A DNA stretch of 64,000 nucleotides from Gammaproteobacteria bacterium (GCA_965243395.1 CBDEUS010000002.1:96001-160000); one strand, 5' to 3'. Counted from the first letter of the stretch, positions 11,810-49,591 are shown. Notes: generated from the sequence alone by a model not told the origin. Numbers and translations: made by a program.

Positions 11810-12016
11810 TTATTTTTTGCGAGTTTTATTATTTAAAAATGCCTTACAAATACCAACACCTACGAACAACAAAACTAACGCAATAACTGTATATGCAAGC
11901 AAGTTTTGTGAATTAGCCAACGCATCATGAGGCCAATGCCCGGGATGTGCGAATAAGCTTATTGGCACTATTATTCCGGCAATAATTGATAAAATTATAA
12001 TATAGGGTTTAATCAC
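11810..12016 (-). CDS. Small membrane protein with HupE/UreJ-like AHPGH N-terminus
   Basis: Signal peptide, AHPGH, then one TM helix; GGAG RBS; sits inside the urt-ure operon. Confidence 0.6.
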   Translation of the reverse strand: MIKPYIIILSIIAGIIVPISLFAHPGHWPHDALANSQNLLAYTVIALVLLFVGVGICKAFLNNKTRKK

Positions 12017-12042
12017 ATTTACTCCTTATTAAGAATAGACAA

Positions 12043-39811: not shown

Positions 39812-40594
39812 CTATACCCAAGTGCTATTCAAGGTATCCCTAAAATAGTTATTTAAACCCTCAGCTTCAGCCTCAGAGCTTTTTTGAGCAAATTTTGTGT
39901 CCTCTAATCGATTTAATTCAGATTCAATAAACTCATTTAGTACTGTAATCTTTTCTGAAGTATCTTTCTCAAATCCAGATTTTTTTCGCTCTAGCAAGTT
40001 ATTTATGGCACTAAGAAGCTTATTGTCATCAACTAACTTTTCTATTAGTTTGGAAAATTCAGTGGGCACCACGCCATAATCATTTTCTATCCATTGCACT
40101 GCTAATAATGGGCGAAGAACATAAAAATATTTTTTTAAACGAACTTGTTCTTTCTGCAAATGCTCTTTATATGTTCTTTTAGCCATACTTAAATAATGAT
40201 AGGCGCATGAAACTGGTGAAAAACTTTTTGGGAGTAAGTTTTGAAACCCATCAGAAAATTTTTCCTTATCTTTATAGACAATAGGAGACCCTATCCACTC
40301 AATCAAAGGTGGATTAGATTTTCGTAACAATCCGAGTGCCTTTCTCAGATCCCAACCATTTATATCAAGCAAATCATCTATAGGTAATTCGATCACATCT
40401 CTTTTGTGTTCAAGATCAATAGATAGATACCACTCAGGTGGATGTATATAAATAAAACGTACGTCAAAATCACTATCTTTAGATGCAAACCCCCACGCTC
40501 GACTACCCGATTCACAGGCATACAAAACTTGAACATTATATTCATCTTCAATTTCATCAAGCTTTTGAAGGATCTCTTCTTTTCTTTCTATCAT
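39812..40594 (-). CDS. Pol-beta-superfamily nucleotidyltransferase (RlaP/YcgL-like, RtcB-associated)
   Basis: ESGSRAWGFASKDSDFDVRF, WDLRKAL, NPPLIEW, KKYFYVLRP. Confidence 0.88.
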   Translation of the reverse strand: MIERKEEILQKLDEIEDEYNVQVLYACESGSRAWGFASKDSDFDVRFIYIHPPEWYLSIDLEHKRDVIELPIDDLLDINGWDLRKALGLLRKSNPPLIEWIGSPIVYKDKEKFSDGFQNLLPKSFSPVSCAYHYLSMAKRTYKEHLQKEQVRLKKYFYVLRPLLAVQWIENDYGVVPTEFSKLIEKLVDDNKLLSAINNLLERKKSGFEKDTSEKITVLNEFIESELNRLEDTKFAQKSSEAEAEGLNNYFRDTLNSTWV

Positions 40595-40916: not shown

Positions 40917-42113
40917 CTATCCTTTTACACATACAACTTGACGCAAAGTGTGTTCAACGCTTACTAAATCATTTTGGTTTTCCATCACCACATCAATATC
41001 TTTATATGCGCCAGGAATTTCATCTAACACACCTTTGTCTTTACGACATTCAACACCAGCCGTTTGCGCTTCAATATCTTCTTCATTGAAATGGCGTTTT
41101 GCTTTACCACGACTCATACGTCGACCTGCACCATGCGAACATGAACTAAATGATTCAGGGTTACCTTTGCCACGAACAATGTAAGATTTAGCGCCCATAC
41201 TACCCGGAATAATTCCAAGCTCATCCACACCAGCACGAATCGCACCTTTGCGTGTAATGTAAACATTTTCACCAAAATGGTTTTCCATAGACACATAATT
41301 ATGATGACAATTGATGGCTTCTTTAGTGATACCAAATTTCGGTAACACTTTTTTTAATGCATCAATTATCAAGCGCATCATTTCTTTGCGATTTTCCATT
41401 GCGTAATCTTGAGCCCAGTTCACTGCATTTACATAGTCATCAAAGTGCTCTGCCCCTTCAGTAAAATATGCTAAATCTTTATCTGGCAAATTATGAATAT
41501 GCTTTTGCATATCTTTTTGTGCTAATCGAATAAAGAATTGGCCAATAATATTCCCTACTCCACGGCTACCCGAATGAAGCATAATCCATACATCATTATT
41601 TTCATCTAAACAGATTTCAATAAAATGATTCCCACCACCAAGTGTGCCTAGTTGACGCACCCAAGTTTGATAAGGCTTTTTCTGCATCTTTAAAAGTTTG
41701 GGGTGTTTTTCTAGTAAGCGATCTAAACCGTCAGATAAAGGTCGTATAGTTGAATTGCGAGCTTTATCTGACTTATGCATATCAAAACCAACAGGTATTG
41801 CAACTTCAATAGCAGTACGCACTTTGCGTAAGTTATCTGGAAGATCATTAGCATTCATTGAAAGACGCAAAGCATTCATTCCACAACCAATGTCTACACC
41901 AACCGCAGCAGGAATAATTGCACCTTTACATGGAATTACCGAACCCACAGTCGCACCTTTACCAAAGTGCACATCCGGCATCGCCGCAATATGACTATGG
42001 ATAAAAGGCAACTGTGATAGGTTGCATAGTTGCTGGTAGGCTTCGTGCTCTATGTCATCAGTATAGATTTTTACTCGCACATTACCTTTGGTAATGACTT
42101 TTTTAATTGGCAT
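40917..42113 (-). CDS. rtcB: RNA ligase RtcB
   Basis: MPDVH, VGVDIGCG, GGGNHF, HSGSRG, HNY, SHGAGR, AYK. Confidence 0.96.
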   Translation of the reverse strand: MPIKKVITKGNVRVKIYTDDIEHEAYQQLCNLSQLPFIHSHIAAMPDVHFGKGATVGSVIPCKGAIIPAAVGVDIGCGMNALRLSMNANDLPDNLRKVRTAIEVAIPVGFDMHKSDKARNSTIRPLSDGLDRLLEKHPKLLKMQKKPYQTWVRQLGTLGGGNHFIEICLDENNDVWIMLHSGSRGVGNIIGQFFIRLAQKDMQKHIHNLPDKDLAYFTEGAEHFDDYVNAVNWAQDYAMENRKEMMRLIIDALKKVLPKFGITKEAINCHHNYVSMENHFGENVYITRKGAIRAGVDELGIIPGSMGAKSYIVRGKGNPESFSSCSHGAGRRMSRGKAKRHFNEEDIEAQTAGVECRKDKGVLDEIPGAYKDIDVVMENQNDLVSVEHTLRQVVCVKG

Positions 42114-42125
42114 ATGTCACCCTAA

Positions 42126-42367
42126 TTAATCTCTAAAATATTCATTTCTATTAGAACCATCATGTCGCTTTTTCTTCAAGCAACAATTCTTGAAATCTAC
42201 GCCCTGATCCACATACACATGGATCATTCCGGCCGAACTTCTCGCTAAGTTCTTTATTGCCATGAACGATTCTATTTCCTCGTTTAACGTTTGTTTCTGA
42301 TGGGAATCCTTTACGACGTTTACTCATACGCTCAAAAGGATTGATCCTTATTTTTAAATTTACACAT
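42126..42367 (-). CDS. SEC-C motif protein split over three frames (two +1 shifts)
   Basis: GAGGTG-ATG 42367; middle frame [14 protein letters not shown]; the +1 frame continues FKNCC...EYFRD*. Confidence 0.7.
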
Positions 42368-42393
42368 GTTGCACCTCACATTACTAAACTAAA

Positions 42394-42780
42394 TCAGTTG
42401 TATTTTTTGCGATAGTTACTGGTAAAAGGTTGCGCAACAATTTGATAATCATCTTGATAGCGTATCCTTCCAATTTCCTCACATTTAATCATATCTACAG
42501 CAATACCTTTATTTTGTATTACAGAAAAGAGCTTCCACATAACGCGTATATGCTCTTGTGCACTAGGTTTAAACCAACACAGGCAGCGATAGTTACCGGG
42601 TATCTTCAAAATAGGAGGCACAATTAAATTTCTATCAATCCATCTAAACACATATTGAACTTCTTCATATTCATAATCAGTGAATGAATTGTTGTATTTT
42701 AGCTTGTACGCAAGATGTATTAGGCCTTGTTCATAACGTGACCTCCTGTCTTGGCACAGCCCAATAAATCGTAAGTACAT
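42394..42780 (-). CDS. Hypothetical protein in the rtcB operon
   Basis: 128-aa ORF, CLCWFK, YQDDYQIVA. Confidence 0.7.
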   Translation of the reverse strand: MYLRFIGLCQDRRSRYEQGLIHLAYKLKYNNSFTDYEYEEVQYVFRWIDRNLIVPPILKIPGNYRCLCWFKPSAQEHIRVMWKLFSVIQNKGIAVDMIKCEEIGRIRYQDDYQIVAQPFTSNYRKKYN

Positions 42781-42869
42781 TTTTAATATCCATTTATATT
42801 ATTTCTCAAATTTAATTAAATGACGCAGGCCCTCAAATAATAGAGGGCCTTTGTCAGTTTATACTCACG

Positions 42870-44018
42870 CTACCCATCAACTTTGATTTGTACCGTGTCT
42901 TTTAGGATGCCATCCAAACCTCCGAAGACAGTTAGTTTGTCTACTTTGTCAGTGACTTTTTCCAACGTCTCCAACTCTTTCAAGCGCATCAAGGTTGGGT
43001 TGTCATCCATCAATTTCGCAGTGTTCAACAATGAACGTGTAGCTGCAGTTTCTTCACGTCTTTTAATGACATTTGCTTGCGCCACTTTTTCTGCTTGAAC
43101 TACTTGGTTCAAGATATCTTTCATGTCGCCTGGCAAAATGACATCTTTCACGCCAACGCTGCGAATTTCGATACCGTATTCAGATACGTTTGCTTTAACA
43201 GATTCGTAGACGTATTTGTCTAGTTCATCTTTAGTTACAAGCAATGCATCCAAAGTGCGTGTACCAATTACCTGACGAAGTGCAAATTGCATTTCGCGGT
43301 AAATGTATCCAGCAAGGTCTACCAATTCATGACGCGCTTTAATTGGGTCACGAATTTGATATTGAGCTGACAAGTTTGCACGTAGGCTAACTTTGTCTTT
43401 TGTCAAAACCTCTTGACCTTGCACTTCCATGCTTTGCATTCGCAAATCAACTTGTTCAACTATTACGTTGCGGTTGTATTTCCAGTATGCGTACAAGCCT
43501 GGTTGCAATGATTCTTTTAATTCACCATCCACAACCAATAGGCCAACATAGTTGTCTGCAACTTCTGCGATGTAAATTGAATTAATCAATTCACTTGGTA
43601 CTTGTTTCGCACGTGTGTGCACAAACTGACCCACTTTATTTGCAGGCAATGCAAAATCTTCTGCAATATTTTGCACTTCAACTGTCATTTCAACTGGACC
43701 TTTCCAAAATAATTGGCGTGTACCAGGTGCTACAACAGTGCTCAATTGGCCACGTTGATAAACCAATCCAACTTCATATGCGTCGGTTTCAACAACTTGG
43801 AAGTATTTTGTTACTATCTCAGGTTGTTCTTTTACCAAGACATCCACATATTTGTGGTTGAATTGCGCTTCCGTTACATCATAAATCTCGACTTGAATTC
43901 GGCCGAAAATATCGAAATATCGATATACGCCTGGTTCAAGCACTTTTACAATGCTTCGGTTTTTCAAGTAAATTCCTCGCTCATGCTGCGCAATAACAAT
44001 TCTTTTAAATCCGAACAT
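42870..44018 (-). CDS. Slipin-family SPFH/band-7 protein
   Basis: GQEVLTKDKV, RREETAATRSLLNTA, LMRLKELE. Confidence 0.92.
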   Translation of the reverse strand: MFGFKRIVIAQHERGIYLKNRSIVKVLEPGVYRYFDIFGRIQVEIYDVTEAQFNHKYVDVLVKEQPEIVTKYFQVVETDAYEVGLVYQRGQLSTVVAPGTRQLFWKGPVEMTVEVQNIAEDFALPANKVGQFVHTRAKQVPSELINSIYIAEVADNYVGLLVVDGELKESLQPGLYAYWKYNRNVIVEQVDLRMQSMEVQGQEVLTKDKVSLRANLSAQYQIRDPIKARHELVDLAGYIYREMQFALRQVIGTRTLDALLVTKDELDKYVYESVKANVSEYGIEIRSVGVKDVILPGDMKDILNQVVQAEKVAQANVIKRREETAATRSLLNTAKLMDDNPTLMRLKELETLEKVTDKVDKLTVFGGLDGILKDTVQIKVDG

Positions 44019-44044
44019 AATTACTCCTTATTAAATAAAGTTTC

Positions 44045-44515
44045 GGGAAATGCTCCACATATAAATTGCGGGTAAACTCCTGTTGTAGTAACGGGTCTAA
44101 AATCTTTCGCATGTCATTGCGATACCCCAACTATCGCTTTGAACATGTTTCAGTCTCTAGACTGGTTATCACAAGCTTGTGATCACGCAGGCAATCTACA
44201 TGTTGCGACATAAAAAACTCTCAACCGTAGTTGAGCTATTTGAAATGTCGCGGGAACATTTCCCTGGTTAGTGTTTTCACACAAAATGCGGATTCGAACC
44301 GCAGGCTTTCGCCATTACCAATGAACAACGTTTAAAGTTGTCGAAAGAACAGGAATCGAACCTGCAACATTTCCGTTATCAGCGGAATGCTCTCCCTTTG
44401 AGCTATCTTTCACTGGTGTATCGGACCACTTACAACTTTGTATACACATTGCAATCACCTTTCGGCTTAGCTTTTGTGCACAGGTCTGAATTCAAGAATC
44501 AGATCCGCTAAGTAA
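44045..44515 (-). ncRNA. Candidate highly structured ncRNA/leader upstream of slipin
   Basis: Dense hairpins, GNRA tetraloop GGC-GAAA-GCC, stand-alone T-arm TGCGG-TTCGAAT-CCGCA, nested tRNA-like domain. Confidence 0.6.
44341..44412 (-). tRNA. tRNA-Ile(GAT)-like domain lacking encoded CCA
   Basis: Full cloverleaf, TTCCG-CT-GAT-AA-CGGAA, GGTTCGATTCC. Confidence 0.65.
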
Positions 44516-44636
44516 ATAAATGTCTCTCAATACTCATGAACTCAATGTTTATAAAACATCGAATTACAATTCTTTAAATACAGGTGACCTGCCCCATTGC
44601 AGGCCACCATTTTTCACGCCCCCTTTCTCCTAAAAT

Positions 44637-45203
44637 TTAACGTCGCTCTTTAGGACATTGTGTTTTCAAGAACGCCATTTGGTCTGCCAAAATTTTGCGG
44701 TTAGATAAAATCAATCCTTCTGCATAATTTGGCTCATATGGAATTCCTAATAATGAAATTCCTATTCTTTCTGCCTCACTAGGCATTAAGCTATCTTTAC
44801 GTGCATTACATGCACGGCATGCTGTAACCACATTCATCCATGTGTTTTTCCCACCACGTGATAGTGGAATCACATGATCGCGCGTTAAGCGATTTCGAGA
44901 ATATTGATCACCGCAATACATGCACATGTAATCATCACGTCGAAACAATCTTGCATTTGTCAGTGCAGGCACTTCACGAATGTGGTCGTCTGATCGCATC
45001 ACACCATGTGTTGCAACAATACTGTTCACATCAATAAATGAACGAGTTCTTGTTCTGCGATTTACACCACCATGAATACGAAAAGAATTTGAACCCATTT
45101 CGTAAACAACTTGTTCTCGTGCATACACTAATGCTGCATATTCCCAGTTCATCCATTCAACTGGACGCCCAGCTACGTCTAAACGCAAAATTAAATTTTC
45201 CAT
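44637..45203 (-). CDS. HNH endonuclease
   Basis: RRDDYMCMYCG, TRDHVIP, NVVTACRACN. Confidence 0.92.
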   Translation of the reverse strand: MENLILRLDVAGRPVEWMNWEYAALVYAREQVVYEMGSNSFRIHGGVNRRTRTRSFIDVNSIVATHGVMRSDDHIREVPALTNARLFRRDDYMCMYCGDQYSRNRLTRDHVIPLSRGGKNTWMNVVTACRACNARKDSLMPSEAERIGISLLGIPYEPNYAEGLILSNRKILADQMAFLKTQCPKERR

Positions 45204-45231
45204 TTAACTTTTCTCTTTTATAAAGTTACTG

Positions 45232-45254
45232 TTTAACAATTTGGATGATTGAAG
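45232..45254. repeat. Trailer arm of perfect 23-bp inverted repeat enclosing the tRNA array
   Basis: TTTAACAATTTGGATGATTGAAG = reverse complement of 48565-48587. Confidence 0.95.
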
Positions 45255-45263
45255 AGTTTAATT

Positions 45264-45340
45264 TGGTACGCAGCCCCAGATTTGAACTGGGAATCAAGTA
45301 GGTTTGAGCTACTCAGGTCTTCCAATTGCCTCAGCTGCGC
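45264..45340 (-). tRNA. tRNA-Leu(CAA), short variable loop
   Basis: AGTAG-CT-CAA-AC-CTACT, CCA. Confidence 0.85.
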
Positions 45341-45352
45341 AAAAATTTAATT

Positions 45353-45429
45353 TGGTATCCCTGGCAAGATTCGAACTTGCAACATTCTGGTTTTAAGTCA
45401 GATGCGTCTTCCGGTTGCGCCACAGGGAC
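45353..45429 (-). tRNA. tRNA-Leu(TAA), short variable loop
   Basis: TCTGA-CT-TAA-AA-CCAGA, CCA. Confidence 0.85.
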
Positions 45430-45440
45430 GTAATGTAATT

Positions 45441-45518
45441 TGGTAGCCACCCTCGGATTTGAACCGAGATGCACCATGTTCTAAGCATGGTAGGTATGCC
45501 AATTCCCGTCAGATGGCC
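45441..45518 (-). tRNA. tRNA-Leu(TAG), short variable loop
   Basis: CCATG-CT-TAG-AA-CATGG, CCA. Confidence 0.85.
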
Positions 45519-45561
45519 AAAATTTTTATTTTTATAATTTAGTTATACATAAATTATGATT

Positions 45562-45637
45562 TGGTACCCCTAGTAAGATTCGAACTCACATCAACTGATT
45601 TAGAAGATCAGTGCTTTTCCAATTAAGCTATAGAGGT
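45562..45637 (-). tRNA. tRNA-Arg(TCT)
   Basis: CTGAT-CT-TCT-AA-ATCAG, CCA. Confidence 0.9.
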
Positions 45638-45659
45638 AAAAAACTAATTGAATTATTTT

Positions 45660-45756
45660 TGGTACCCCAACCAAGATTCGAACTTGGATCTACCACTAAT
45701 CTGGTGCGTGAATCACGGGATATAAATCCGCTGCTTTACCGTTAAGCTATTGGGGC
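45660..45756 (-). tRNA. tRNA-Ile(TAT) with ~27-nt extra region
   Basis: GCGGA-TT-TAT-AT-CCCGT, 97 nt, CCA. Confidence 0.75.
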
Positions 45757-45765
45757 AAAATTTTT

Positions 45766-45839
45766 TGGACACTCCGCTCAGAATTGAACTGAGTCCTCAA
45801 GGGTTGCAACCTTGCGTCTTGCCGATCGACCACGGAGTG
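45766..45839 (-). tRNA. tRNA-Cys(GCA)
   Basis: CAAGG-TT-GCA-AC-CCTTG, U73, CCA. Confidence 0.88.
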
Positions 45840-45840
45840 T

Positions 45841-45915
45841 TGGCACATCCGGAAAGATTTGAACTTTCATCTTTGGGTTTGGAGGCCAATGTTCTGCCAA
45901 TTGAACTACAGATGC
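45841..45915 (-). tRNA. tRNA-Trp(CCA)
   Basis: CT-CCA-AA loop, G73, CCA. Confidence 0.88.
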
Positions 45916-45917
45916 TC

Positions 45918-45993
45918 TGGCTGGGAGTCCTGGACTCGAACCAAGATCTCAAGAGTCAAAGTCTTGCGTCTTAACCAGTTAGACGAATTCCCA
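45918..45993 (-). tRNA. tRNA-Gln(TTG)
   Basis: CAAGA-CT-TTG-AC-TCTTG, U1-A72, G73. Confidence 0.9.
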
Positions 45994-46002
45994 TTTTTGT
46001 TT

Positions 46003-46079
46003 TGGCGCGGTTGGAAAGACTCAAACTTTCATCTTCGACTTTCGTAGAGTCGTGCTTTATCCGATTAAGCTACAACCGC
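46003..46079 (-). tRNA. tRNA-Arg(ACG)
   Basis: CGACT-CT-ACG-AA-AGTCG, CCA. Confidence 0.9.
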
Positions 46080-46087
46080 AAAAACTT

Positions 46088-46163
46088 TGGTAGCCCGAAT
46101 CCGATTCGAACGGATAACTTTCGCTTTGTAAGAACGACACTCTGCCAATTGAGTTATCGGGCT
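46088..46163 (-). tRNA. tRNA-Val(TAC)
   Basis: TCGTT-CT-TAC-AA-AGCGA, CCA. Confidence 0.9.
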
Positions 46164-46171
46164 AAAATTTT

Positions 46172-46243
46172 TGGTAGTTACGGTTAGAATCGAACTAACA
46201 AGTCCAGGGTTATGAGCCCTAGCCGAAGACCACTTCCGTAACT
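46172..46243 (-). tRNA. Initiator-like tRNA-Met(CAT) with aberrant short D-arm
   Basis: TAGGG-CT-CAT-AA-CCCTG (3 G-C pairs), 72 nt, CCA. Confidence 0.75.
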
Positions 46244-46251
46244 AAAGTATT

Positions 46252-46325
46252 TGGTGGATCCAGTAGGAGTCGAACCTACCTCTGCGGGTTAAAAGCCCGC
46301 TGCACAACCGCTATGCCATAGATCC
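46252..46325 (-). tRNA. tRNA-Lys(TTT)
   Basis: GCGGG-CT-TTT-AA-CCCGC, CCA. Confidence 0.9.
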
Positions 46326-46326
46326 T

Positions 46327-46402
46327 TGGCACGCCTGAAAGGAGTTGAACCTTTATCTCACTGGTTCGAAGCCAGTGGCTCTTCCAATTAAGCTACAGAC
46401 GT
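46327..46402 (-). tRNA. tRNA-Arg(TCG)
   Basis: ACTGG-CT-TCG-AA-CCAGT, CCA. Confidence 0.88.
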
Positions 46403-46404
46403 AT

Positions 46405-46495
46405 TGGCGGAGAAGAACAGATTCGAACTGTTGAATGAAAAATTTCCATCCCTCCTTTAGCAAAGGAGTGCTTTAAACCACTCAGCCACTTCTCC
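46405..46495 (-). tRNA. tRNA-Ser(GCT)
   Basis: CTCCT-TT-GCT-AA-AGGAG, long variable arm, G73. Confidence 0.9.
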
Positions 46496-46555
46496 AATTT
46501 ATAATTTGCAGCGCTTCGCGATATTTAATTTGCGAGTAATACCCACTCGCAAGCG

Positions 46556-46631
46556 TGGGGTGAACTACCGGACTCGAACCGGTATCTACCAGATTCACGT
46601 TCTGGGGCTTTGCCATTAAGCTAAGCTCACC
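46556..46631 (-). tRNA. tRNA-His(GTG)
   Basis: CCAGA-AC-GTG-AA-TCTGG, encoded G-1 and C73. Confidence 0.88.
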
Positions 46632-46642
46632 ATAATTATTTT

Positions 46643-46734
46643 TGGCGGAAGGCGGAGGGCACGATCCCCACCAACTAAAAAGCCAGCCACCAGTTTTCAA
46701 GACTGGGACACCCCCACTGGGTGAATCACCTTCC
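46643..46734 (-). tRNA. tRNA-Ser(TGA), non-canonical 8/4 fold
   Basis: CCAGT-CT-TGA-AA-ACTGG; 8-bp acceptor GGAAGGTG/CGCCTTCC, 4-bp T stem, long variable arm, G73. Confidence 0.8.
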
Positions 46735-46749
46735 TTATATATGTAAATT

Positions 46750-46824
46750 TGGAGCGGATAATCGGATTCGAACCGATATTTATGGTTTGGAAGACCATCA
46801 CTCTGCCAATTGAGTTATACCCGC
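46750..46824 (-). tRNA. tRNA-Gly(TCC)
   Basis: ATGGT-CT-TCC-AA-ACCAT, U73. Confidence 0.9.
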
Positions 46825-46829
46825 AGATT

Positions 46830-46907
46830 TGGTCTGAGTGGCTGGATTCGAACCAACGACCTCTCGCTTCCAAGGCGAGTACTCTGCCCAGGCTGAGCTA
46901 CACTCAG
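46830..46907 (-). tRNA. tRNA-Pro(TGG)
   Basis: CTCGC-CT-TGG-AA-GCGAG, C1-G72. Confidence 0.9.
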
Positions 46908-46934
46908 AGAATTAATTAAATATAAAAAATTATT

Positions 46935-47010
46935 TGGTGCATCGAGTTGGACTTGAACCAACGACCACACGATTATCGGTCGTGCGCTCTACCAACTGAG
47001 CTATCGATGC
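46935..47010 (-). tRNA. tRNA-Ile(GAT)
   Basis: CACGA-CC-GAT-AA-TCGTG, CCA. Confidence 0.9.
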
Positions 47011-47011
47011 T

Positions 47012-47086
47012 TGGTGTTCCTGACCAGAATTGAACTGGCATCTCGAGTTTGAAAGACTCGTGACCTCACCATTAGTCGACAGGAAC
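47012..47086 (-). tRNA. tRNA-Glu(TTC)
   Basis: CGAGT-CT-TTC-AA-ACTCG, CCA. Confidence 0.9.
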
Positions 47087-47100
47087 TAATAAAATATTTT

Positions 47101-47176
47101 TGGCGGACCCGATCGGACTCAAACCGACATCCCCTTTATCGACAGTAAAGTGCTTTATCAATTAAGCTACGAATCC
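47101..47176 (-). tRNA. tRNA-Asp(GTC)
   Basis: CTTTA-CT-GTC-GA-TAAAG, G73. Confidence 0.88.
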
Positions 47177-47184
47177 AACTTTTG

Positions 47185-48045
47185 TTTAAAGGTTGAGACT
47201 ATGCCTTTAAAAATCACTCTTTTGTTGAAGTACCTAACGCATTGCTGTGCGATAGTTGCCAACGTGTCCACATTACCCTGGTTGCTCCAGCGATTATGTT
47301 AGTGATCATGACTGCTTTTTTTAAAGTGTAGCGATTCACTTGTCGCGTTAATCTATTCAGCTATTCACTTACCGAGAACCTTGCCAGGCTCTAAACGGAG
47401 GCTATCCGAACGTGCAATGAAGTAACTAAAGTTCTTTGGCTTGCGACCGCAGAATCTTCCATGTTCCCAAGTGGGCATGGACTTAAGTCATTTTCAATTA
47501 ACACCGAGACGCGTCTTTGCGTTTCACCGTATGGTGATCTATGTGGGAGTCGAACCCACGACCTATTGATTCTAAGTCAATCGCTCTACCAATCTGAGCT
47601 AAAAGATCAGGTACTACTAAGACGTGCACGTCTCAGTTGCTTCATTATTTTTTGAATAACGAAATACAACACGCCTTTTGTCTTTCCTCTGCCGAGTACT
47701 TAACCGAATATTCGGATCATGGCTTCCACCCATTTCCCTAATAATCTGCACAACCGCACTTGTCTGCAAAACTCGTACTATGTTGTACTACCTGTTATCT
47801 CTCGTAGTACGCAATCTAGTATCACGGGTTACAGCACTACCTGTATCTTTCTCACGACCCGTATTCCCAAGTAAACCTGGTACGTCAATCGTGGTACTTC
47901 CGCGTATTGCTTGGCTACTATTGCCGATTGAATTACGACAACATGGAGACCAGGCTTGCTTGGTTTGACCTACTTTGAAAAGTGGGCGAAATACCGTAGT
48001 CGTATTCCTTTCCTATCGTTGCCGATAGTTATCGTGCCAAGCCAC
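47185..48045 (-). ncRNA. Large structured ncRNA, GOLLD-like, with nested tRNA
   Basis: ~860 nt with no credible ORF inside the tRNA array, many stems, repeated ACAGGTAGT motif, 3' hairpin TTTAAAGG-CATAGTCTCAA-CCTTTAAA; family assignment from recalled properties, not a search. Confidence 0.6.
47532..47608 (-). tRNA. Class-I-shaped tRNA with TAG (Leu) anticodon nested in the large ncRNA
   Basis: ATTGA-CT-TAG-AA-TCAAT, GGTTCGACTCC, CCA; one acceptor-stem mismatch. Confidence 0.8.
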
Positions 48046-48050
48046 ATATT

Positions 48051-48126
48051 TGGTGGAGGATCACGGATTTGAACCGTGCGCCTTCTGTTTGCAATACAGA
48101 CGCTCTGCCAACTGAGCTAATCCCCC
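48051..48126 (-). tRNA. tRNA-Ala(TGC)
   Basis: AT-TGC-AA loop, G3-U70. Confidence 0.9.
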
Positions 48127-48135
48127 AAACTTATT

Positions 48136-48210
48136 TGGCTGCGACGGTTGGACTCGAACCAACATTGCTTCGCTTAACAGACGAATGTTCTACCATTGAA
48201 CTACATCGCA
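48136..48210 (-). tRNA. tRNA-Asn(GTT)
   Basis: TTCGT-CT-GTT-AA-GCGAA, G73. Confidence 0.9.
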
Positions 48211-48218
48211 ATTATATT

Positions 48219-48295
48219 TGGTGCATCAGGATGGATTCGAACCACCATCGCGTCGGGCTTCAACCGACCGCTCTACCCATTGGAGCTACCGATGC
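48219..48295 (-). tRNA. tRNA-Phe(GAA)
   Basis: GTCGG-TT-GAA-GC-CCGAC, CCA; unrelated in sequence to the att-type Phe fragments. Confidence 0.88.
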
Positions 48296-48304
48296 AAAAA
48301 TAAT

Positions 48305-48389
48305 TGGTGGAGAGAGATGGATTCGAACCACCACGCTAATAATTAGCACTGGGTTACAGCCAGCGTGTCTCACCAATGACTGTCTCTCC
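48305..48389 (-). tRNA. tRNA-Tyr(GTA)
   Basis: CTGG-CT-GTA-AC-CCAG, variable arm GCTAAT-T-ATTAGC. Confidence 0.85.
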
Positions 48390-48401
48390 TAAAGTTAAAA
48401 C

Positions 48402-48477
48402 TGGAGCTGGTGATAGGCGTCGAACCTACAACCTACTGCTTACAAAGCAGTTGCTCTGCCATTTGAGCTACACCAGC
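48402..48477 (-). tRNA. tRNA-Thr(TGT)
   Basis: ACTGC-TT-TGT-AA-GCAGT, CCA. Confidence 0.9.
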
Positions 48478-48486
48478 AAAAAATAT

Positions 48487-48559
48487 GGGACAGTCGCACA
48501 TGCGCACAACTCAACTTAGGAGTTGGGCATAATTTAAAAATTAAATTACGCACTGCCCC
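48487..48559 (-). ncRNA. Small four-way-junction RNA element at the head of the array
   Basis: Closing stem GGGGCAGT/ACTGTCCC with three internal hairpins. Confidence 0.45.
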
Positions 48560-48564
48560 GCCTA

Positions 48565-48591
48565 CTTCAATCATCCAAATTGTTAAAGAGC
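48565..48591 (-). promoter_or_regulatory. rrn-type boxA antitermination site overlapping the leader arm of the 23-bp inverted repeat
   Basis: GCTCTTTAACAATTT matches the gammaproteobacterial rrn boxA. Confidence 0.85.
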
Positions 48592-48604
48592 TACTGCCAG
48601 GACT

Positions 48605-48639
48605 AAAAAACCCCGGAAGGCGAACCTAACCGGGGTTTT
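48605..48639 (-). terminator. Intrinsic terminator (attenuator) before the tRNA array
   Basis: AAAACCCCGGTTAGGT-TC-GCCTTCCGGGG-TTTTTT. Confidence 0.88.
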
Positions 48640-48693
48640 ATTTTGATTCCGGAAGGCTCGCAACGCGCACCCTCCGAATTAATTTGGAAGGTA

Positions 48694-48849
48694 CTACGTA
48701 ATTGGGTCCTCTAAGGTGGCCCCAATAAAATTATTTGTGCCGAGATTCGATATCTCATGCACAGCAACACACCACAAAAAACACGACGGCTTTAATAACC
48801 GCTGCATTAGTTGCGCTGAAAAACTAGTTGTATATGTACTTCTATTCAT
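48694..48849 (-). CDS. Putative 51-aa leader peptide MNRSTYTTSFSAQLMQRLLKPSCFLWCVAVHEISNLGTNNFIGATLEDPIT
   Basis: Starts 10 nt after the -10 box; stop abuts the first attenuator segment; contains all 20 amino acids. Confidence 0.7.
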   Translation of the reverse strand: MNRSTYTTSFSAQLMQRLLKPSCFLWCVAVHEISNLGTNNFIGATLEDPIT

Positions 48850-48859
48850 AGTGCGCGAA

Positions 48860-48887
48860 AGTCTAATGATATGGATTTTAAAGTCAA
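48860..48887 (-). promoter_or_regulatory. sigma70-like promoter with GC-rich discriminator
   Basis: TTGACT-N16-TAGACT-TTCGCGCACT-ATG. Confidence 0.72.
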
Positions 48888-48937
48888 GTAATATTTTACT
48901 AAGTAAAGTGTGAATTTACGCCCAATTATCGGCCAAA

Positions 48938-49591
48938 TTAATCCTCAAGGGCTGACAAAAAAGAAATCATTGCTTTACGTTGTTTTTCATTTAAAGAGAG
49001 TGATGCAGAAATTATTTCTTGAATGTCCGTTAATTGTTTTTGAAATTCTTTATTGTTCAATTCTTTAGGTGCTTCATCCAACCAACCTACTGGTTTTTTT
49101 GCTGCAACTTCAATTCCTCTTGCAAACTCATCACTCATGCTTGGAATAAATGGTGTTTTGTAATGTTGTTGAAATAATTCCCATGATACTCCTGCTGATT
49201 CACATTCTTTTTTAGAACAAACCTTATTACCAGACTTTCCACATAGGGTCTTAAAGTTTGTAAATCTAACGATTTGAAGAAATGGGTCTAAGTTTTTTAC
49301 AGGAGCAGTGCCAAATAATAACCAATTGGTGGAATATCCAGTAACTTTGCTAATACCTTCAATGATTTTTAAATTTGGGTTTTGTGGAGCCGACGTTTCG
49401 TAAAGAGAAAGAAGTTGTTTTGACACCTTTAGTCTTCTTTTTTTCAATAATTGCATCATCTCACTTGGATCAATGCCATTAACTACACGTGCAAAACGCA
49501 CCCTTGATGAAACTGTAGCTAATTCATTTTTTCGTTTTGAACTACTAGTTGATTTTTTGGAGACACGACGTTTAGATTTATTTTTTACCAT
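48938..49591 (-). CDS. XRE/Cro-like HTH protein
   Basis: VSKQLLSLYE...ISKVTGYSTNWLLFG; second HTH-like ARGIEVAAKKPVGWLD. Confidence 0.7.
   Translation of the reverse strand: MVKNKSKRRVSKKSTSSSKRKNELATVSSRVRFARVVNGIDPSEMMQLLKKRRLKVSKQLLSLYETSAPQNPNLKIIEGISKVTGYSTNWLLFGTAPVKNLDPFLQIVRFTNFKTLCGKSGNKVCSKKECESAGVSWELFQQHYKTPFIPSMSDEFARGIEVAAKKPVGWLDEAPKELNNKEFQKQLTDIQEIISASLSLNEKQRKAMISFLSALED

Follow-up and report, generated by a model that had tools for sequence, protein, structure and literature searches.

The window analyzed here is a stretch of 64,000 nt from a gammaproteobacterial genome (GCA_965243395.1, CBDEUS010000002.1:96001–160000), and coordinates given without a locus name are positions in it. 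Between positions 45,232 and 48,591, its minus strand carries a long array of transfer RNA (tRNA) genes with a GOLLD RNA among them; the array is preceded by a boxA of the type found in ribosomal RNA (rRNA; rrn) operons and is enclosed by two complementary arms that could close it into a single RNA loop. In the direction of transcription, the features of this unit are:

48580–48591, minus strand: boxA, GCUCUUUAACAA in the sense of the RNA; an exact match, equal to the boxA of the Escherichia coli rrnB leader (L419)
48565–48595 (core 48565–48587), minus strand: leader (5′) arm, overlapping the 3′ two-thirds of boxA
45264–48477, minus strand: 27 tRNA-like genes, 24 called by ARAGORN and three by Rfam (45663–45756, 46175–46243, 46647–46734)
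47190–48050, minus strand: GOLLD RNA, with the RF02032 match at 47190–47677 and an embedded tRNA-like gene at 47532–47608
45224–45254 (core 45232–45254), minus strand: trailer (3′) arm, 9 nt past the last tRNA gene and 28 nt ahead of the start codon of an HNH endonuclease gene

The original prediction, made from the sequence of the window, described exact reverse complements around the whole array, and the sequence, a genome search, and shuffles agree on this. The trailer core (45232–45254, TTTAACAATTTGGATGATTGAAG) and the leader core (48565–48587) are perfect reverse complements over 23 nt; complementarity reaches 31 nt at 90% (45224–45254 with 48565–48595), and the arms are spaced 3310 nt apart. 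With up to three mismatches allowed, the 23-mer has two copies in the 2,578,523-base genome, one on each strand, and these are the two arms. Shuffled leaders never reached a run of 23 (0/100; longest shuffle run, 16), nor did the shuffles in an unbiased comparison of 300 nt upstream with 300 nt downstream (0/200). Because all of the genes in the array are on the minus strand, 48565–48595 is the leader arm and 45224–45254 the trailer arm of the sense RNA. The unit had also been called a tRNA array; 27 tRNA-like genes do lie between the arms, but the cargo is not purely tRNA, since ~860 nt in the middle of the array (~47190–48050) are GOLLD RNA.

The assignment of the boxA as an rrn boxA was borne out as well: the match is exact, it is kept in homologous arrays, and it has the TTTGGA extension that is present in rrn leaders and spacers of other genomes of the same class. 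GCTCTTTAACAA has a single exact copy in the genome (48580–48591, minus strand), which overlaps the upstream arm; the canonical boxA is thus on the foreign array and not on the rRNA operon of the host. The one rrn operon that is assembled has the variant GTTTTTTAACAA in its leader (G000:C2:1157230) and the variant GTTTTTTAAAAA in its spacer (C2:1159474); it has a leader/trailer run of 20 nt that is further from its boxA (offsets 22–41), and a hairpin with a U-run in its leader runs into boxA. The longer word CTCTTTAACAANNTGGA (boxA plus TGGA) is found in 21 of 401 genomes of the same class. The loci fetched for this word include two in 16S leaders, 10 before 23S (one of them, L436, from a genome flagged as unpublished), and two before tRNA arrays (the window and L443/L451), with the rest unassigned.

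Homologous arrays were collected with the HNH protein as query in genome and metagenome collections and by tblastn in plasmid and phage collections; a motif search of viral contigs and of the 401 same-class genomes gave three more loci. Leader positions were counted from the G of boxA, and helices were assessed as ungapped runs of Watson–Crick or G·U pairs, a test that replaced wide-window duplex energies; incomplete contigs (L018, L019, L098, L099) and L416, in which the leader is off the locus, were left out of the assessment. Seven loci have the helix (four chromosomal, one on a metagenome contig, one on a plasmid, and one in a giant phage), and in each of these the paired run starts at leader positions 5–11 and ends just after the last tRNA gene (the second-last in the phage). 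The run, its leader positions, and the shuffles that reach it are as follows:

Window (the same arms are in G028, a relative from a different genus of the same family): run of 23, leader 5–27, 0/100 shuffles
L020, chromosome, 24 tRNA genes: run of 17, leader 10–26, 0/100 shuffles
L023, chromosome: run of 16, leader 11–26, 1/100 shuffles
L125, metagenome contig: run of 15, leader 10–24, 2/100 shuffles
L415, plasmid pM7012 of Burkholderia sp. M701, 37 tRNA genes: run of 14, leader 11–24, 2/100 shuffles
L293, complete 310-kb phage record, arms 14 kb apart: run of 19, leader 11–29, 0/100 shuffles
L451, chromosome of G274, arms 6.2 kb apart: run of 19, leader 9–27, 0/60 shuffles

When the unbiased 300 × 300 comparison was made for five loci, the best complement was the boxA-adjacent pair in each; the run was reached by 0/200 shuffles for the window, 4/200 for L020, 5/200 for L023, 8/200 for L415, and 19/200 for L125. 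The boxA is exact in L020, L023, L414, L451, and L452 and has one mismatch in L125, L293, and L415; in L417 it is a weaker variant, and L418 lacks it. The phage tRNA arrays L214/L304 and L347 also begin with boxA. A search of L214 for a trailer copy (≤3 mismatches in 22 nt) matched the leader itself only, and a partner was seen once G·U pairs were allowed. A near-identity search of phage records with the window array gave no match. Salicola phage SCTP-2 and Ralstonia phage RsoM2USA encode HNH homologues and were rejected as candidates, having no boxA-led array at the HNH gene: tRNA genes are scattered in SCTP-2 and absent from 18.5 kb of RsoM2USA, and no long-range partner was found in either for the stretch before the HNH gene.

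Compensatory change in homologous arrays had been set beforehand as a test of the predicted rRNA-like leader/trailer helix, and it was found across the seven loci. Pairs were counted by script, and the two arms are >3000 nt apart in four loci. At leader positions 11–24, each leader pairs with its own trailer in 98 of 98 cells (94 Watson–Crick, four G·U, no A·C); a leader set against the trailer of another locus pairs on average at 9.0 of these 14 positions (range 5–14, 42 combinations). Nine positions (13, 14, and 18–24) show two to four types of Watson–Crick pair, that is, changes on both sides. That pairing within a locus is kept despite two-sided changes shows selection for complementarity. 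G028 adds no covariation, its arms being those of the window.

The same cells bear on whether RNA or DNA is selected. All four wobble cells at positions 11–24 are G·U on the tRNA-sense strand, which favours an RNA on that strand as the selected form. Scored by the sense rule (G·U allowed) and by the antisense rule (A·C allowed), the run is 15 vs 9 in L125 and 19 vs 13 in L293; by our own reading, as opposed to a computation, the two internal U·G pairs of L451 would break its antisense-rule run. A strand test over the helices plus their flanks is weak. We conclude that a conserved long-range RNA helix very probably adjoins a functional-looking boxA in these arrays.

The register of boxA followed by a helix is also that of E. 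coli K-12 rrnB (L419:317), the leader of which has the same 12-mer boxA as the window array. When the next 150 nt are compared with the region after 16S, the longest complement is a 26-nt run from leader position 13; it pairs with 2023–2048, just past 16S (460–2001); the runs in the arrays start at positions 5–11. In the duplex fold of rrnB, GCU and CUUU of boxA pair across an internal loop, as they do in L020 and L023. RNase III cuts the 16S precursor at the leader/trailer helix of rrnB; boxA binds NusB/NusE and builds the antitermination complex, and this complex also helps distant rRNA segments to pair. The host of the window array encodes both RNase III (rnc) and NusB (nusB).

By analogy, we think it probable, with less assurance than for the helix itself, that these arrays have the rrn-type design in full, including Nus antitermination and a long-range helix that is cut by RNase III. 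RNA polymerase passing boxA would be modified by the Nus factors of the host (NusB/NusE and their partners), and the modified polymerase would cross the long untranslated array without Rho-dependent termination. The tethered leader would then pair with the trailer as the latter emerges, closing the whole array into one loop; RNase III would cut the helix, releasing the tRNA/GOLLD precursor from both the 5′ leader and the HNH mRNA, and RNase P and 3′ processing enzymes would release the single RNAs.

Several observations weigh against the helix or against this design. The arms of L020 and L451 are nearly alike, so the seven loci amount to ~6 independent lineages, and L125 taken alone is not significant (19/200; duplex z = −1.2, with wide-window energies that are too permissive). 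Over the helices plus 3-nt flanks in six loci (L451 left out), four G·U stand against seven A·C, and in L023 the antisense rule lengthens the run by 1 nt; covariation would also be expected of terminal inverted repeats evolving together with a single binding protein. Six other arrays or leaders have no helix, which means that not all arrays need one: L414, L417, L418, L452, L422, and L423. L414 is a Methylibium plasmid array with 27 tRNA genes and an exact boxA (34/100 and 47/200 shuffles); L417 has the variant boxA and L418 no boxA; L452 belongs to the same leader family and has only two tRNA genes; and L422 and L423 are arrays on a Mycolicibacterium and a Nostoc plasmid, respectively. Outside the window, where the helix has 23 uninterrupted pairs, the uninterrupted runs are 14–19, a length at which a helix is short for an RNase III substrate. 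Upstream of boxA, at a distance of 13 nt, is a terminator-like hairpin followed by a U-run, and promoter-like matches in a consensus scan are fewer than expected by chance (seven vs a shuffle mean of 11.9). The RNA contigs that match the window (see below) span 47204–48033 and reach neither helix arm, and contigs cannot show RNA ends.

In L422, a perfect 11-nt complement (L422:8946–8956 and 12008–12018) borders directly on the first tRNA gene at one end and on the last at the other; its length is within chance (119/200 shuffles), and its placement is suggestive.

The alternative that survives best is that the helix is real as an RNA structure but is not an RNase III site, which we consider rather unlikely. 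The helix could be a clamp that protects the 5′ and 3′ ends of the precursor; or, lying over boxA, it could strip off NusB/NusE once the trailer has been made, ending antitermination at the end of the array; or it could control translation of the HNH gene. Several of the helices have only 14–17 bp, and in all seven loci pairing starts at boxA positions 5–11 and so covers part of the NusB/NusE site, both of which suit such a role; against it, the nearest analogue, the rrn leader/trailer helix, shares the register and is an RNase III substrate. For control of HNH translation in particular, six loci (all but L293) were considered: the ribosome-binding region of the HNH gene is 0–30 nt past the trailer arm in five and ~100 nt past it in L415, and in L023 the boxA segment GCUCUUU pairs with AAGGAGC in the trailer, the presumed Shine–Dalgarno region for HNH; L023 is, however, the only locus in which the arm overlaps the ribosome-binding site.

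It is improbable that the arms act as DNA, with the array being a mobile or invertible tRNA cassette whose ends (terminal inverted repeats or recombination sites) are bound by one protein. Perfect inverted repeats that differ by lineage do resemble transposon ends, the gene for a nuclease (HNH) lies beside one arm in every locus, and the arrays are mobile (87–97% identity between two genera). However, Pfam detects no transposase or recombinase in or beside the window unit, there is no direct target duplication (the flanks instead prolong the inverted complementarity), and one arm overlaps boxA, which is conserved for another reason. The segment shared with G028 (40921–49519) overruns both arms; rrn operons share the layout; and the non-Watson–Crick cells at positions 11–24 (4/4) are G·U in the sense RNA. 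Inversion of the DNA, which had been named beforehand as the outcome that would count against an RNA helix, finds no support: all seven loci have one orientation relative to the HNH gene, and in one relative a DNA contig runs colinear through both arms. A chance match or a recent, functionless local duplication beside a coincidental boxA is scarcely credible: the identical arms of the window and G028 yield no covariation and L125 (19/200) and L415 (8/200) are individually marginal, but the run in the window was reached in 0/100 and 0/200 shuffles, the register recurs in seven loci with differing arm sequences, and nine other array or leader loci have an exact or one-mismatch boxA.

The original prediction had further proposed that RtcB, encoded nearby, ligates the excised ends of the helix. 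RNase III leaves 5′-phosphate and 3′-OH ends, and RtcB joins a 3′-phosphate or 2′,3′-cyclic phosphate to a 5′-OH end. A bulge-helix-bulge motif (two 3-nt bulges, 4 bp apart) is absent from the continuous helix of the window and from the runs of the other loci. Sealing by RtcB is therefore not supported, the RNase III ends having the wrong chemistry and the motif being absent, and ligation of the helix ends is unlikely, their circularization by RtcB very unlikely. RtcB is tied to long tRNA arrays generally, including arrays that have no closing helix (PMC8421152).

Upstream of the array, the minus strand has an open reading frame (ORF) of 217 aa that has no Pfam match, followed by a non-coding leader of ~340 nt. 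Three hairpins are predicted around boxA:

48647–48678, minus strand: upstream leader hairpin of the GGAGGG...CCTTCC type, aligned in the window, G028, L020, and L023
48605–48639, minus strand: terminator-like hairpin with a U-run, 13 nt upstream of boxA
48478–48562, minus strand: local leader hairpin GGGGCAG...CTGTCCC, between the leader arm and the first tRNA gene

In the first hairpin, some pairs are changed on both sides among the four aligned sequences, and visual inspection shows the hairpin in L451 and L452; that it is conserved ahead of boxA points to a transcription start still further upstream. The terminator-like hairpin is also present ahead of boxA in L020, L023, L293, L451, and L452, and the distance from hairpin to boxA is 12–30 nt in the window, L020, L023, and L293 and ~90–120 nt in L125, L414, and L417. 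In a consensus fold, its 3′ half pairs alternatively with a conserved CCTGG (CCYGG in the family; 48597–48601). The structured leader as a whole (48594–48680, minus strand) is common to L020, L023, L451, and L452; it could be an attenuator that gates the array, and the terminator-like hairpin may be the counterpart of the boxB hairpin of rrn leaders or a conditional attenuator. The fold of the 243-nt leader as a single sequence has z = −5.1, and the closing pairs of the local hairpin are kept in L020 and G028. Two promoter assignments were rejected: boxA is not a −10 element, as the spacing to a −35-like word fails in L214 and L125, and the GG and GC elements of a sigma-54 promoter in CCTGGCAG are wrongly spaced.

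These leader structures, together with the closing helix, allow a bolder version that we put forward tentatively, as a possibility that is doubtful at present: the mobile arrays may have copied the whole transcription-and-folding device of rRNA operons and may use it as a self-limiting switch. The attenuator-like hairpin would gate entry; the boxA-loaded Nus complex would carry the polymerase through 3–14 kb with the leader held at the exit channel; and the trailer would then pair across boxA and displace NusB/NusE, so that antitermination would stop exactly at the end of the cargo, where the same helix would mark the cut between the tRNA/GOLLD precursor and the HNH mRNA. If this is true, the arrays would be the first non-ribosomal, mobile example of a Nus "RNA chaperone" loop, one that is found in chromosomal islands, plasmids, and giant phages.

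The genes downstream of the trailer arm are:

44637–45203, minus strand: HNH endonuclease gene (PF14279, 1.7e−16; PF01844, 2.7e−13), directly after the trailer arm
44583–44608, minus strand: terminator-like hairpin after the HNH gene, from the consensus scan only
42870–44018, minus strand: SPFH gene (Pfam)
40917–42113, minus strand: RtcB gene (Pfam)
39812–40594, minus strand: RlaP gene (Pfam)

HNH homologues adjoin the trailer arm in L020, L023, L125, and L451 and start ~100 nt past it in L415. The transcription unit may end at the hairpin at 44583–44608. Between the HNH and SPFH genes, and not enclosed by the helix, are a second tRNA-Ile(GAU) gene (44340–44412, minus strand) and a T-arm-like fragment (44287–44303, minus strand). 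Past this tRNA-Ile gene, the order on the minus strand is SPFH, a 128-aa ORF, a SEC-C-motif peptide, RtcB, a 99-aa ORF, and RlaP. The genes for RtcB, RlaP, and SPFH recur around these arrays, and L125 also has a cREC_REC gene inside the helix; in our view, RtcB, RlaP, and SPFH likely accompany the array in repairing or replacing tRNAs, rather than in ligating the helix ends. The gene enclosed by the leader/trailer helix of L125 (L125:9541–9852) encodes a cyclic-phosphate-processing receiver domain (PF20274). L018 has the gene order RtcB, tRNA genes, SPFH, tRNA genes, HNH.

In a search of 60 relatives, long matches of the length of the array were found in G028 only. The array in G028 is 87–97% identical to that of the window, and the shared stretch (40921–49519) runs well past both arms; identity is 92% over 40921–42377 and 97% over 42816–45261, and the RlaP gene is outside the aligned stretch. 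Because the shared sequence extends past both arms, it marks a transferred island and not a cassette that is bounded by the arms.

Elsewhere in the genome, 36 other tRNA genes are called; these are mostly scattered and make up a normal housekeeping set. The array itself, with 27 genes in 3.2 kb, has the more than 20 clustered, same-strand, supernumerary tRNA genes that characterize an L-array, and by its sequence the unit belongs to the horizontally transferred L-arrays and has a GOLLD RNA embedded in it. The RF02032 match scores 153.5 bits against a gathering score of 150, a narrow margin, with E = 5e−42 and all of model positions 1–416 matched; GOLLD was not found at the gathering score in L020, L023, L125, L018, or L214. 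Contigs from three marine metatranscriptome runs of one study are near-identical to the window over 47204–48033. Their extent fits a GOLLD RNA of ~850 nt occupying the whole interval from one tRNA gene to the next, and GOLLD RNA thus appears to be present in environmental RNA.

Four genes with Leu anticodons (CAA, UAA, UAG, and UAG; 45264–45518 and 47532–47608, minus strand) are only 77–78 nt long; a short variable loop replaces the long arm of bacterial tRNA-Leu, and the first three begin with G1·U72. The arrays of L017–L020 likewise end in runs of Leu-anticodon genes. The tRNA-like gene at 45663–45756 (minus strand) scores 55 bits with Rfam and is called by ARAGORN only if an 18-nt insertion in the anticodon loop is allowed; the insertion would be either intron-like or the mark of a pseudogene.

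Long tRNA arrays acquired by transfer occur widely among bacteria, plasmids, and phages and presumably serve as a reserve for translation if tRNAs become damaged or run short; little is known about how polymerase reaches the end of untranslated units of this length or how their transcripts are processed. If the rrn-type design is correct, the arrays borrow the ribosomal antitermination and RNase III machinery of their hosts, which would explain how an untranslated transcript of 3–14 kb escapes Rho and would define a primary precursor that also carries GOLLD RNA, the biology of which is still open. The array would then be a small natural system, simpler than an rRNA operon, in which to study the Nus-aided pairing of distant RNA segments, and boxA plus the closing helix would provide an annotation signature for the ends of arrays.

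Part of this is already known: the L-array type, its HNH and rtcB companions, and the presence of GOLLD in such clusters have been described (PMC8421152; PMC6582537). L-arrays are clusters of >20 supernumerary tRNA genes that spread horizontally and are linked to an HNH gene and rtcB (Santamaria-Gomez et al. 2021, PMC8421152), and a mycobacterial cluster of 32 tRNA genes has both GOLLD and HNH, with a tRNA-like gene embedded in GOLLD (PMC6582537). The window array resembles these in its number of tRNA genes, its transfer, its HNH gene and rtcB linkage, and its GOLLD with an embedded tRNA-like gene; unlike it, the one Nostoc and the one Mycolicibacterium array that we tested have no leader/trailer helix. 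The terms "inverted repeat", "antitermination", "RNase III", "terminator", "stem-loop", and "GOLLD" do not occur in the main text of PMC8421152. Literature searches for boxA, NusB, or RNase III in connection with tRNA arrays or operons turned up no report of a boxA plus helix; a match for a tRNA array or gene cluster with boxA was discarded, the word being BOXA1R, used as a PCR primer only. We found no publication of the boxA-plus-closing-helix design for mobile tRNA arrays.

Phages offer a second comparison, their boxA or nut-type sites. GYTCTTTAACAANNTGGAT is present in at least 120 viral stretches; among the matches listed, many of the viral loci (L294–L371) have it after a GC hairpin with an A-run, and many of the sites lie ~650–830 nt short of a contig end, the contigs being ~40 kb long. 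They resemble the boxA sites of phage early regions. Among the loci fetched, only L214/L304 and L347 have such a site ahead of tRNA arrays, and in the phage scan the one array locus that was tested for a long-range partner, L293, has it.

The processing stems of archaea are a third. Archaeal rRNA and tRNA stems with a bulge-helix-bulge are cut by the splicing endonuclease, and RtcB circularizes the products. The window array is like these in having inverted repeats that flank a unit of structured RNA and in having an RtcB gene nearby; it differs in that its helix is continuous, that such arrays are bacterial or phage-borne, and that its layout copies bacterial rrn leaders. To rrnB, finally, the likeness is that of a long-range helix around an untranslated RNA on the kilobase scale. 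The differences are in the cargo, which is 27 tRNAs and a GOLLD RNA instead of rRNA; in the helices, which have 14–23 bp in the arrays and at least 26 bp in rrnB; and in the setting, as the array unit is mobile and foreign and a protein gene (HNH) follows its trailer.

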